A stretch of DNA of 64,000 nt from a virus: positions 32,001 through 96,000 of the IMG/VR virus record IMGVR_UViG_3300031420_000003. One strand, 5' to 3'. A program made the translations under genes and the position numbers. Below are positions 9,348 to 32,175 of the stretch, piece by piece; within the stretch, counting starts at the first letter, position 1; every line of letters begins with the position of its first letter. The notes under the pieces were generated by a model. It worked only from the letters and a program-made list of their open reading frames with translations. It was not told where the DNA came from and ran no database searches.

Positions 9348-10751
9348 TTATTCGGATACGGTCTCTTTCACGATGTAAGACGCCGCATCGTCTGCGAACT
9401 GCCAGTAATCGATCTTCTCAACCGGCTGATGACGAGTTCCGTCTTTGCCGTCGAGGGTGAACTCGAACAGGACGTGAGGGCGCGGATAGAAGGTGTCGCC
9501 ACCGTAGTAAACGCCGACGCGGACAAACTGCACGTGACTGCCGCCCAGCGTGGCGCGAATGGCATCAGCCGCAGCATTCAACTGCTCTTGAGTAGGCACA
9601 ACCGGGAAGTAAGACACTTCTACGGTTTTCTTTTCAACGAAGCCCAGCTCATCAACCGGCGTGAAGTGCGTCGTTAAACCACGTGCACTACCGCTCTGCA
9701 CGTCGCCGTCATAATCTTTCAGCTGTTCGGTTGGCGACATCTCAGCTTGGATGCTTGGGCCGTTGTCGCCGTCGAAATCGCCAGCCTTTTCGGTGTCTTT
9801 CAGGGCACGTTGGATACGATCGTTATCAGACATATCAGACTCCTTCACAAACACACCATCTGCATTCAGGAAACCGGTGCGGTCTTTGATTTCATCCCAC
9901 GCCATGGACAGGGCTTGCTCCAGCGTGAATTCGTACGCATTAGCCAGCGCGTTGGCAAAGTAGATAGCTTCGGCCAAGTAACCGACAGCACACTGGATCT
10001 GCGTTTCGTCGAACAGGTCTGCGGTCAGCTTCTTCGGTGAATCAACACCGGCTACATCCCACAGGTAGTCAACCGCGACGGTGTTGGACAGACGCAGTTT
10101 GTGATACAGGTAATGCGCGTTACCCAGCGGGCCGTTTTCTTTACGGGACGCTTCAACCATTGGCAGAATAGAAACAGCGTTAAAGCCGCTCAGTTCCATC
10201 AGGTTAACCATCACCACGATCATGTCACCGACACCGTCGATAATCATGTTGCGTTTGGACTTGGCGACACCCGGTGCAATCTCACCGTCTTCTTCGTACA
10301 TCTTGGTCGCTTGGGTGAACCAGACGCCGTTGTCCAGAATGCCGCGCGCCTGTGACCAACCTTTGATGTTATCAATCAGTTCAGCCATGCGGAACAGACG
10401 GATATAGCGCGGGTGTGTCACGATGTTCTTTTTGTCGTGATACAGCGGAACCAGCAGTTCCAGCTCCAGACCCGGCAGGGTCAGTTCGCAGTCGTAAATC
10501 TCTTCACCGCGTTGACGGTTAGCGACCAGCTCTGGATCGTTTTCAACATCGCCGTCTTCAGGTGCCAGCAGACCTTCGATAAACCACTTACCGGTTTCGA
10601 CGTTGCGATCCAGTGAGGAGATAGCACGGAAGAGGATGTTTGCCCGGCCTTCTTTTTTCAGCTCTTCCAGCTGTGCATTAACCTGCGCCAGATACTGGTT
10701 CGGATTCAGCAGTGCAACGTATGGCACTTGGATTACAAATTGATCGCCCAT
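9348..10751 (-). CDS. MazG-like NTP pyrophosphohydrolase with extra N- and C-terminal domains
   Basis: Core IKGWSQARGI...QATKMYEEDGEIA...IIDGVGDMIV and AWDEIKDRTG...GVFVKES match the MazG-like all-alpha NTP-PPase pattern (EExGE, DxxGD). Confidence 0.8.
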   Translation of the reverse strand: MGDQFVIQVPYVALLNPNQYLAQVNAQLEELKKEGRANILFRAISSLDRNVETGKWFIEGLLAPEDGDVENDPELVANRQRGEEIYDCELTLPGLELELLVPLYHDKKNIVTHPRYIRLFRMAELIDNIKGWSQARGILDNGVWFTQATKMYEEDGEIAPGVAKSKRNMIIDGVGDMIVVMVNLMELSGFNAVSILPMVEASRKENGPLGNAHYLYHKLRLSNTVAVDYLWDVAGVDSPKKLTADLFDETQIQCAVGYLAEAIYFANALANAYEFTLEQALSMAWDEIKDRTGFLNADGVFVKESDMSDNDRIQRALKDTEKAGDFDGDNGPSIQAEMSPTEQLKDYDGDVQSGSARGLTTHFTPVDELGFVEKKTVEVSYFPVVPTQEQLNAAADAIRATLGGSHVQFVRVGVYYGGDTFYPRPHVLFEFTLDGKDGTRHQPVEKIDYWQFADDAASYIVKETVSE

Positions 10752-10796
10752 TTGATGTCAGTCCTTAAAATTAATCGATGTTTATATTGGTTAAGA

Positions 10797-10822
10797 AAAG
10801 AATACCCCGTCGAAAGACGGGG
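10797..10822 (-). terminator. Intrinsic terminator after the 62-aa gene
   Basis: CCCCGTC-TTTC-GACGGGG then TATTCTTTT on the minus strand. Confidence 0.75.
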
Positions 10823-10832
10823 CAGGCACTAC

Positions 10833-11021
10833 TTAGATTTTGCAGCCATCGCAATCTGCTTCATCAGAAATGTCATCCTGATTCTCTTCAGCAGAACGCT
10901 TCTCGGCTACACGCGCTTCTGCGTCGTCCAAACCCGGCAGGTCAAAACCGTCTGCGTCATCCGCAACCATTTTGTTGTGCTCGTCGATAGTGGACTGCAT
11001 TGCGCCTTCTTTCTGGGACAT
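10833..11021 (-). CDS. Small acidic protein ending in DCDGCKI (RNR-alpha C-tail-like)
   Basis: AAGGA RBS; lies between a promoter-like motif (11059-11083) and a terminator. Confidence 0.75.
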   Translation of the reverse strand: MSQKEGAMQSTIDEHNKMVADDADGFDLPGLDDAEARVAEKRSAEENQDDISDEADCDGCKI

Positions 11022-11081
11022 CGTCTTTTCCTTCTTTGGTCAGTATAGAGTGTTTCAGCATAGAACTGCTAACACACGTTT

Positions 11082-11318
11082 TTAATCCGCGTGGTATTTT
11101 GCTTGACAGTGAGGACAATCGAAGGAGTCTTTATTGCGCGCCCACGTTATCCGTTTACCACAGCTCACACAGCGGTAGTTGTCGGGCTTGTACTTGATAT
11201 CCACCCGTGCACCGCACTTGCAGTCGTAGCCGGCGATAGAGACAAAGCCTTCTTTATCGTGCATCACCCGTGGTACGAGTGTGTGCTCGCCACACTTGAA
11301 ACAGAGGTTGTGTTTCAT
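11082..11318 (-). CDS. Double zinc-ribbon protein
   Basis: CFKC, CKC, CVSC and CPHC Cys pairs in 78 aa. Confidence 0.75.
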   Translation of the reverse strand: MKHNLCFKCGEHTLVPRVMHDKEGFVSIAGYDCKCGARVDIKYKPDNYRCVSCGKRITWARNKDSFDCPHCQAKYHAD

Positions 11319-11327
11319 GGCCCACCT

Positions 11328-12335
11328 TTAAATGGCGACCGGCGCTTTAATAGCCGGATGCGATTCGTAACCTTCGATTTCGAAATCGTCGAACTGGTAG
11401 TCGAAGATGGAATCCGGCTTGCGTTTGATTTTCAGACGTGGTAACGGGTGTGGGTCACGGGTAAGCTGCAGCTTCGCCTGTTCCAGATGGTTGGAGTACA
11501 GGTGCGTGTCACCACCAGTCCAGATGAACTCTTCAGCCACCATGTTCACCTGCTGAGCAACCATTTCCGTCAGTAGCGCGTAAGAGGCGATGTTAAACGG
11601 CACGCCTAAGAACACATCGGCGCTACGCTGATACAACTGGCAGGACAGACCGCGGCGGGGAATATCCAACTCATCAAGTTCATCATGTAACTGTTCTTGA
11701 TGCTTCTCGTTGAGGTTCTGATAATACCCGCCTGTCCCCTTCAGGTTGGCAAACTGGCCACGTTCTTCGAGAGTCAACTCACGGGTGTAGAACTGGAAGA
11801 ACGCATGGCAGGGCGCTAAGGCCATGTCGTCGAGTTCGCCGACGTTCCACGCACTGACGACGATGCGACGGTTATCCGGGTCGTTACGCAGCTGGTCAAT
11901 GACTTTAGAAATTTGATCGATGTCCTTAGTAAGGAGCATAGTCGCTTCCCGCCACCCGGCCTCTTCCCAACCGTCAGCTTCCATTTCATCGATGGTTTTG
12001 CGGTTAGAGTGATGCACTTCATCGTGTGCTGTCCAAGACCGCCACTGTTTACCGTAGACCGGGCCTAAGTCACCGTTCTCATCCGCCCACTCATCCCAGA
12101 TAGAGACGTTGTTCTCTTTCAGGTAACCGATGTTGGTATCCCCTTTGAGGAACCACAGCAGTTCGTGAATGATGGAACGCAGATGGCACTTCTTGGTGGT
12201 GACCAGCGGAAAGCCTTCGGTCAGGTCAAAGCGCATCTGACCACCGAACATGGAGAGTGTGCCCGTGCCGGTACGGTCTTTCTTTTCACGACCAAAGTTG
12301 AGTACGGTTTCCATCAGTTGAAGATACTGGCGCAT
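11328..12335 (-). CDS. thyA: Thymidylate synthase
   Basis: [36 protein letters not shown] (catalytic Cys), [18 protein letters not shown]. Confidence 0.97.
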
Positions 12336-31704: not shown

Positions 31705-32175
31705 TTAGTTTAAACAGGTCTTCTCGTGTTCAGAAAAGTTATGCCGGAACGCCTTACGGTCAGACCGGTAGTTCTCAAGAATTTGGCGAAACTGATTAGC
31801 GATGTCCTGACTAATCTGTTCTGCACTGCGAGAGTTACGGTCAAGCGTAATGCGGTCTGGAATCGGATGGAGGTCCGGTGTTTCAAACTCTTCGCACAAA
31901 GGTGCGACCCGAGGTGGATGCCAACCACGCGCTGCGACATATTCGTTGAGATCTCGTGCGTACTTATAGACATAATACGCATAGATGTTCACGTCGATAA
32001 CATATGTCTCAAACGCTTTCTGATCGTCGTTACCCAAAGGATATCTAGCGGCCACTGGTGGATTGTCCATCTGCCTCGTAGGCCAAGCCCGCACCGGTTC
32101 CGGCGGGGTACCTTTGTACTGGGGGGTACAGCCCGCCAAGAGCAGCAGGATAACCCCCAGACAGAAAGGTTTCAT
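31705..32175 (-). CDS. Lipoprotein, candidate o-spanin
   Basis: Lipobox LLLLAGC; Pro-rich segment after the Cys; further Cys residues; overlaps the upstream membrane gene. Confidence 0.6.
   Translation of the reverse strand: MKPFCLGVILLLLAGCTPQYKGTPPEPVRAWPTRQMDNPPVAARYPLGNDDQKAFETYVIDVNIYAYYVYKYARDLNEYVAARGWHPPRVAPLCEEFETPDLHPIPDRITLDRNSRSAEQISQDIANQFRQILENYRSDRKAFRHNFSEHEKTCLN

Follow-up and report, generated by a model that had tools for sequence, protein, structure and literature searches.

A 62-residue acidic microprotein encoded in a 64,000-nucleotide stretch of viral DNA (IMG/VR record IMGVR_UViG_3300031420_000003, positions 32,001 to 96,000; this whole stretch is referred to as the window) reads, from its sequence, as a detached-tail-like counterpart of NrdA, the large (alpha) subunit of class Ia ribonucleotide reductase (RNR). 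Its acidic-hydrophobic motif is joined by an acidic linker to a flexible end that carries the cysteine pair C-x-G-C-K-I. The gene is genuine in the phage, with a ribosome-binding site and a terminator, and the peptide family to which it belongs probably acts on the host supply of DNA building blocks. The function that we favour, tentatively, is that of a diffusible, NrdA-tail-like dithiol shuttle acting in trans with host NrdA and thioredoxin (Trx) or glutaredoxin (Grx). The re-reduction of RNR through its alpha tail is textbook chemistry: the tail cysteines reduce the active-site disulfide and are themselves re-reduced by Trx or Grx. A free, gene-encoded RNR tail has apparently gone undescribed: literature searches with the motif strings and on phage mimicry of the RNR tail turned up none, and no family name, Pfam model or NCBIfam model was found for the peptide.

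The open reading frame (ORF) encodes MSQKEGAMQSTIDEHNKMVADDADGFDLPGLDDAEARVAEKRSAEENQDDISDEADCDGCKI, which ends in DEADCDGCKI and contains 19 acidic and 6 basic residues (net charge -13), in agreement with an initial annotation, made from the letters alone, that had described a highly acidic 62-residue peptide with a terminal cysteine pair. The gene comprises the following features:

10833..11021, minus strand: coding sequence of the acidic microprotein, 62 residues plus stop, from ORF translation; homologues at 98-71% identity.
10836..10856, minus strand: DCDGCKI, codons 56-62, the NrdA-type C-terminal cysteine pair; invariant in the family alignment A1.
10911..10949, minus strand: GFDLPGLDDAEAR, residues 25-37, the acidic-hydrophobic motif; conserved among phage members.
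11029..11033, minus strand: ribosome-binding site AAGGA, with the ATG 8 nt further on, from sequence inspection.
10793..10824, minus strand: intrinsic terminator-like hairpin and T-run, 8 nt past the stop codon of the peptide.

Alignment A1 was assembled from members gathered by tblastn and homologue search, and the motif was not used for selection. The terminator, which the initial annotation had also placed right after the gene, has a 9-bp stem with 6 G-C pairs (10824-10803, minus strand), followed by the T-run; as a count it is not significant (1 hairpin found in the region versus 1.1 expected from shuffles), and it is its position that matters. The GFDLPGLDDAEAR motif, whose counterpart in a 43-residue bacterial form is an invariant F-D-I-D-A-x-L, is a possible docking element. 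No Pfam or NCBIfam model matches the peptide (0 Pfam families), which therefore lacks the PF02867 barrel with catalytic cysteines that defines NrdA, and a phmmer search against PDB sequences gave no match at E <= 10. An AlphaFold2 model built from a 23-row alignment shows two helices (residues 3-23 and 31-46) and a coil tail, with a mean predicted local distance difference test score (pLDDT) of 68.5 and values of 57-59 over the last 16 residues, all of them coil. This is not a thioredoxin or glutaredoxin fold. The peptide has only two cysteines, in place of the four ligands and two CxxC knuckles in one chain that characterize a zinc ribbon or Cys4 site.

The likeness to the RNR alpha tail, proposed initially, is borne out. 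The E. coli NrdA tail, ...AEDAQDDLVPSIQDDGCESGACKI (in longer form ...NTRDGAEDAQDDLVPSIQDDGCESGACKI), compares with the peptide end ...AEENQDDISDEADCDGCKI, and the peptide resembles the pattern ...QDDL...DDGCESGACKI of the E. coli, Erwinia and Pantoea enzymes. The E. coli tail cysteines are Cys754 and Cys759. Peptide and class Ia tail have in common an acidic flexible segment, a QDD[LI] stretch and a C...G.CKI ending in which two cysteines precede K-I, and the peptide displays the arrangement expected of a redox tail, with two cysteines 2-4 positions apart in the last ~10 residues after an acidic flexible stretch. It differs from that tail in being a separate 62-residue product without a barrel, from a genome without nrdA, in its CxxC spacing (CxxxxC in the host enzymes) and in an additional N-terminal helix. 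IMG/VR was then scanned for DC[DE]GCKI followed by a stop codon, and 109 viral loci were read. In 13 of them the motif is exactly the C-terminus of a full or partial NrdA of 750-785 residues; the two of these that were checked against Pfam contain the ATP-cone, all-alpha and barrel domains, the barrel stopping ~25-30 residues before the C-terminus. Some phage NrdA tails also carry an I-D-L-D-D-I-L-type stretch ahead of the cysteines, similar to the F-D-L motif of the free peptides. With the stretch and the ending both shared, the free peptide looks like a whole alpha tail, from which it may descend, the similarity spanning ~20 residues. An AlphaFold2 model of one phage NrdA (L031, 7-sequence alignment) has a mean pLDDT of 65.6, with the tail (residues 724-755) below 50, and is silent on tail docking. 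The remaining loci comprise 9 proteins of ~120 residues with a PF13876 domain, 30 others and 57 copies of a single ORF. The 30 are mostly acidic peptides of 37-63 residues (~26 short acidic phage proteins), with a few fusions and 3 chance-like cases; the matches at L050, L058/L099 and L183 look like chance occurrences of the pattern. The 57-locus ORF is rich in Cys, Ser and Arg, ends in LDCEGCKI (for example L024:8791-9192) and overlaps the start of an antisense gene that, judging by its sequence, we take to be a KilA-N-like prophage gene. It was set aside as a chance motif copy multiplied by one common prophage.

The window is part of a complete 248-kb phage genome with terminal repeats, and the DNA runs that contain the stretch come from phyllosphere, root and plant metagenomes; no RNA run was among those listed. 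A near-identity DNA search among phages gave no match, and the protein-level search did yield relatives: the peptide is 84-75% identical to hypothetical proteins of the Erwinia phages Wellington, Kwan and pEa_SNUABM_11. Using the peptide as query, tblastn at E <= 10 retrieved 58 phage records (55 Erwinia, 2 Pantoea and 1 Salmonella). Seven of the matches were translated, and all seven end in [AGS]DC[DE]GCKI:

Wellington gp259.
AH04_15, 45 residues.
Y3_038, 51 residues.
Yoloswag gp34, 146 residues, with an additional N-terminal part.
Aioli_00021, 39 residues.
An unannotated ORF of Y2.
A protein of Salmonella phage KKP 3828, 94 residues (L259:2354-2638).

Taxonomically, these phages are spread over Wellingtonvirus, Meadowvirus, Sasquatchvirus, Yoloswagvirus, Chaseviridae and Autographiviridae; the family as a whole is conserved over at least five jumbo-phage genera, Chaseviridae and Autographiviridae. 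A 23-member profile searched against 1.84 billion protein representatives gave 38 matching clusters at E <= 0.001, all 38 with C[DE][GS]CK[IL], although the profile rows were themselves selected by motif and its presence throughout does not rule out tail-less relatives. The motif is the extreme C-terminus in 36 of these, and the two that extend beyond it are probably miscalled stops. Conservation of the terminal CxxCKI in related phages, the check put forward with the initial annotation, is thus seen in both sets. All source-named members, including Proteus phage Myduc gp32, are labelled 'hypothetical protein', and the ESM Atlas returned 'hypothetical protein' clusters only, all under 0.9. When tblastn was run with the bacterial-type member P0023 no match was obtained, and P0022 retrieved Pantoea phage AAM37 only; a low-complexity filter probably hides further members from this search.

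The peptide also has bacterial chromosomal counterparts. A scan of one-genome-per-species contigs with the same motif pattern gave at least 120 loci, and in 109 of the 120 listed there is a 43-residue gene whose product reads M-x-DD-[IM]-F-[ED]-FDIDA-x-L...K....VP....DEADCEGCKI, in which F6, F8, D9, I10, D11, L14 and K24 are invariant. Among the matches listed, the genera include Pantoea, Erwinia, Tatumella, Mixta, Izhakiella, Serratia, Rouxiella, Sodalis, Hafnia and Budvicia. Selection on the gene is strongly purifying, with a median ratio of nonsynonymous to synonymous substitution rates (dN/dS) of 0.087 over codons 2-36, which lie outside the search pattern (255 usable pairs of 600 drawn). 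A sample of 301 genomes of the GTDB order contained the pattern in 4 cases. E. coli K-12 contains no C-x-G-C-K-I-stop, and the place that follows yedI in E. coli is occupied by the unrelated yodC.

Carriers of the peptide generally do without an RNR large subunit of their own. Among the 37 viral records in which the tail is found on a protein other than NrdA, 36 lack PF02867, the class I/II large-subunit family; for records of at least 90% completeness the figure is 25 of 26. The exception, G012, bears an odd, probably chance, match to the motif. Searches with PF02867 likewise found nothing in Wellington, AH04, Y3 and Yoloswag, and NrdD was not found in any of the five phage genomes checked. 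Stand-alone forms therefore do occur in phages without nrdA, a second check that had been proposed at the outset. The statement that the window holds no RNR gene also stands and extends to the whole 248-kb phage, where family searches detected no PF02867, NrdB (PF00268), NrdD (PF13597), glutaredoxin or thioredoxin. An orphan NrdB, with no NrdA beside it, is found in 6 of 27 peptide-bearing records and also in AH04. The C-termini of these orphan proteins, ...SSYLVGQIDS.V...DF.[DN]F[QE]L, nearly coincide with the stretch by which E. coli NrdB binds alpha; beta subunits of this kind could work only with the host alpha subunit. In two cases (G005:C1:5894-7090 and G017:C1:75890-77781) the orphan NrdB is divided between two open frames, which cover profile positions 7-190 and 189-281 and lie ~0.3-1 kb apart; this suggests an intron or a homing-endonuclease insertion. 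Grx is encoded in 4-5 of the 27 records, and its gene adjoins that of the peptide in AH04 (5 nt apart) and in four jumbo-phage contigs (L030, L032, L065 and L068). Genes for thyA, dCMP deaminase, Tmk or thymidine kinase (TK) lie near the peptide gene in 11 of 26 further loci fetched; these include 9 with thyA (one at 26% identity only) and 1 with dCMP deaminase alone, TK also being seen.

The same tail is found at the end of larger proteins. In phages of N4 size, nine contigs encode PF13876 proteins that end in ...DL[VI].[GS]L..[DE].DCEGCKI (for example L087:1164-1517 and L123:8801-9235, plus seven other loci), and their tail ...NDLVAGLSDEGDCEGCKI closely follows the host NrdA tail ...DDLVPSIQDDGCESGACKI. 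None of the thyA, dCMP deaminase, Tmk, TK or Grx-type neighbours was seen at these nine loci. At the level of tblastn alignments, the PF13876-borne tail can be followed in N4-like phages that infect Escherichia, Pantoea, Erwinia and Pectobacterium. A recent preprint identifies PF13876 as the Acb4 family of sponges directed against the cyclic-oligonucleotide-based anti-phage signalling system, CBASS (bioRxiv 10.1101/2024.12.30.630793). Members of this family (N4 Gp49, Sf6 gene 66) from N4-size phages share the tail of the peptide, whereas the 62-residue protein of the window has no PF13876 domain according to Pfam. Phage N4 itself is said to depend on host RNR, a point for which the literature searches yielded no source. 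In the 94-residue protein of Salmonella phage KKP 3828, a Cys-rich N-terminal part is joined to the acidic module and tail, and with this protein the family reaches Autographiviridae and a Salmonella host. Proteins of the Erwinia phage pEa_SNUABM_5 type (P0040 and P0076-P0081, 127-233 residues) open with a conserved domain, MPDNKQPIEYYV..., which a hyper-acidic linker, differing in length among them, connects to the peptide module. Among 8000 word-sharing candidates scored, the longer fused forms were only phage proteins without Pfam domains, with no fusion to Grx, Trx or NrdA, which is weak evidence.

If the peptide acts as a shuttle, its reduced form would be a diffusible dithiol that docks on host NrdA and passes electrons to the active-site disulfide as the tail of the enzyme itself does, and a glutaredoxin or thioredoxin, from the host or the phage, would then recharge it. 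Phages relying on host NrdA would carry the peptide to keep the host RNR cycling during infection, and some of them would add a host-compatible NrdB and a Grx. In the Bacillus subtilis RNR, the tail enters the substrate pocket and can also bind TrxA, and tail and substrate cannot occupy the active site together (PMC11903788). A complex of the peptide (alignment A2) with tail-less E. coli NrdA (residues 1-737) was predicted with a score of 0.50 (runs 0.51, 0.47 and 0.50), against 0.00 for the best of three controls; at least 81% of contacts recur between the runs and the pLDDT of the partner is at least 57. The mark applied to this score is reached by 58 of 80 solved complexes and by 2 of 110 mismatched pairs, and at scores <= 0.60 only by 7 of the 80 solved complexes together with both of the passing mismatches. 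The electron path would be shared with the known donors Grx, Trx and NrdH, the first of which is encoded next to the peptide in AH04-like phages, whereas the peptide lacks their thioredoxin fold and resembles the acceptor tail rather than a donor. A wider proposal, which we hold somewhat more loosely than the shuttle itself, is that Enterobacterial cells and their phages share a hitherto unrecognized, diffusible RNR recharging arm of 40-60 residues, through which Grx or Trx would serve NrdA in trans; phages without RNR would bring this arm, sometimes with NrdB and Grx, and the arm would also be a portable tag on Acb4-like sponges and other proteins.

The shuttle is favoured because the features of the tail are kept, because NrdB and Grx accompany the peptide in phages that need host NrdA, and because the complex prediction adds weak support. 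The backing for action in trans is circumstantial, consisting of the orphan host-like NrdB, the adjacent Grx, the nucleotide-metabolism neighbours and that prediction. Several observations weigh against it. No NrdA is found among the 38 profile matches, and the likeness covers ~20 residues at motif level only. The peptide carries CxxC where host NrdA carries CxxxxC. NrdA retains its own D[GD]CESGACKI tail in all five peptide-bearing genomes inspected (Pantoea, Erwinia, Budvicia, Sodalis and Serratia), so that the need for a free tail is hard to explain. The chromosomal gene shows no linkage to nrd or grx genes: NrdA and NrdB were each found in 2 of the 120 listed loci, probably the two in which the motif ends an NrdA-type frame, and the AH04 Grx in none. 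Upstream of the 43-residue gene the best match to an NrdR box has at least 3 mismatches in 116 of 116 loci, the level of shuffles (2 mismatches for E. coli nrdA, the control). The gene follows yedI, which encodes a DUF808 inner-membrane protein, on the same strand in 72 of the 120 loci, with close spacing in 65 of the 72 (a gap of ~37 nt in Erwinia rhapontici; see also L176:5079-6159); this is the arrangement in Erwiniaceae. The tail is borne by Acb4-family sponge domains in nine contigs and by unrelated domains elsewhere. The absence of NrdA, counted among carriers only, is no more than suggestive. The complex prediction used E. coli NrdA in place of the real host enzyme, and it may have passed through resemblance to solved alpha-tail or beta-tail complexes.

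A precedent exists for a free copy of a segment that the parent enzyme keeps. GrcA (YfiD) is a stand-alone glycyl-radical spare part for pyruvate formate-lyase (PFL), and in both cases a large radical enzyme retains its functional C-terminal segment, as the five host NrdA proteins do, while a small free protein carries a copy of it. The two differ in that GrcA folds as a domain and is clearly homologous to PFL, whereas the peptide shows no statistical homology to the parent segment (no NrdA at E <= 0.001 in the profile search, nothing in PDB by phmmer) and its replacement role is hypothetical.

The same tail could also act as a decoy or brake, competing with the NrdA tail for Trx, Grx or the active site and thereby lowering RNR re-reduction or diverting reducing power, which we consider rather unlikely. 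Its ending is that of real NrdA tails, and the same partners would be expected; the complex score fits an inhibitor equally well, the host copy could be a regulator, and the mutual exclusion of tail and substrate in the B. subtilis enzyme (PMC11903788) is in line with inhibition. Carriers without their own NrdA, however, depend on host RNR, and the host-compatible NrdB and the Grx found in some of them point to boosting that enzyme. The logic has a parallel in the small, disordered eukaryotic RNR inhibitors Sml1, Spd1 and Hug1. These proteins act on the large subunit in competition with its C-terminal CxxC tail, as reportedly described by Zhang et al. 2007, and are not known to carry a cysteine pair, whereas the peptide has one, has no Pfam match and is found in a phage context that argues for activation. 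Less probable is a thiol or metal microprotein unrelated to RNR, such as a binder of Zn, Fe or Cu or a partner of YedI, in which the NrdA-like ending would be convergent. A CxxC within a very acidic peptide, the position directly downstream of yedI, the lack of nrd linkage and of an NrdR box at the bacterial loci scanned and the failure of the profile search to retrieve NrdA would all fit such a protein. It would have to work with two cysteines in one chain, though, and it accounts poorly for the exact seven-residue match at the extreme C-terminus of 13 real NrdA proteins and for phage copies that lie amid nucleotide-metabolism genes and beside Grx; moreover, linkage to yedI is not seen in 48 of the 120 listed loci, including all those of Serratia and Sodalis, and the Serratia copy stands alone with its own ribosome-binding site and terminator.

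The fusions raise a further reading, improbable in our view, of a portable targeting or anti-defence module, in which the tail would tether a cargo to host NrdA or to Trx or Grx, or would counter a defence system, the stand-alone peptide being its minimal form. We know of no defence system that involves the NrdA tail. The tail on PF13876, its alignment through N4-like phages of four host genera and the further fusions, with the Cys-rich domain in KKP 3828 and with other domains, speak for this module, and fusions of anti-defence proteins have served as a discovery lead (bioRxiv 10.1101/2025.07.12.664507). For a phage counter-defence, however, one would not expect a host chromosomal gene that is syntenic and strongly constrained by purifying selection. 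A non-functional nrdA remnant or a chance ORF is hardly credible. It is true that the sole similarity of the peptide is to the extreme end of NrdA, but the gene has its own ribosome-binding site and terminator, the phage distribution and the 38 profile clusters described above show conservation, the dN/dS of the bacterial copies is low, and no nrdA fragments were found in the 248-kb genome. The remnant was rejected on the conservation of the family, as was a precursor of a ribosomally synthesized and post-translationally modified peptide; for the latter, no radical S-adenosylmethionine or maturase family was found among the ORFs scanned beside the gene at one Erwinia and one Serratia locus.

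The surroundings of the peptide gene in the window comprise the following features:

11059..11082, minus strand: AAAAC-N15-TATG promoter-like site, unsupported by its motif count against shuffles.
11082..11318, minus strand: 78-residue zinc-ribbon ORF directly upstream of the peptide gene; sub-threshold zinc-ribbon Pfam matches only.
11328..12335, minus strand: thymidylate synthase thyA, 335 residues; PF00303, E 2e-116.
9348..10751, minus strand: MazG-like ORF, 467 residues, beyond the terminator; Pfam MazG E 0.075, under the cut-off.

The initial annotation had set the gene between thyA and MazG. Both flanks are as described, but the zinc-ribbon ORF, which has four CxxC pairs and lies between thyA and the peptide gene, had gone unmentioned and the MazG match is sub-threshold; the Wellington homologue of the MazG-like ORF is annotated as a putative MazG pyrophosphohydrolase. 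A promoter of its own, also claimed for the gene, did not hold up: the AAAAC-N15-TATG site is present, but it occurs twice in the window versus 0.4 times expected, with two or more occurrences in 7 of 100 shuffles, and no sigma-70-like site was called in the scan of the region. For these reasons the peptide gene is probably transcribed together with thyA and the zinc-ribbon ORF, as the final cistron of a thyA operon. At the position of the latter Wellington has a 131-residue ORF, and an additional ORF of 152 residues lies past its peptide gene. The neighbours thus seem to vary between the window phage and Wellington while the peptide gene stays. The thymidylate synthase covers the 266-position Pfam profile from one end to the other and must therefore contain ~70 inserted residues.

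If the peptide works in trans, it would be an added component of deoxynucleotide supply in plant-associated Enterobacterales and would give phages without RNR a new route to exploit the host enzyme, and the orphan phage NrdB genes would be explained. It would also provide a minimal, synthesizable probe for the chemistry between the tail and the active site and between the tail and Trx or Grx. Were it an inhibitor or a tag instead, bacteria and phages would have in it their own equivalent of the small RNR regulators of eukaryotes. Under any of these readings, it defines a conserved microprotein family with a sharply testable hypothesis.

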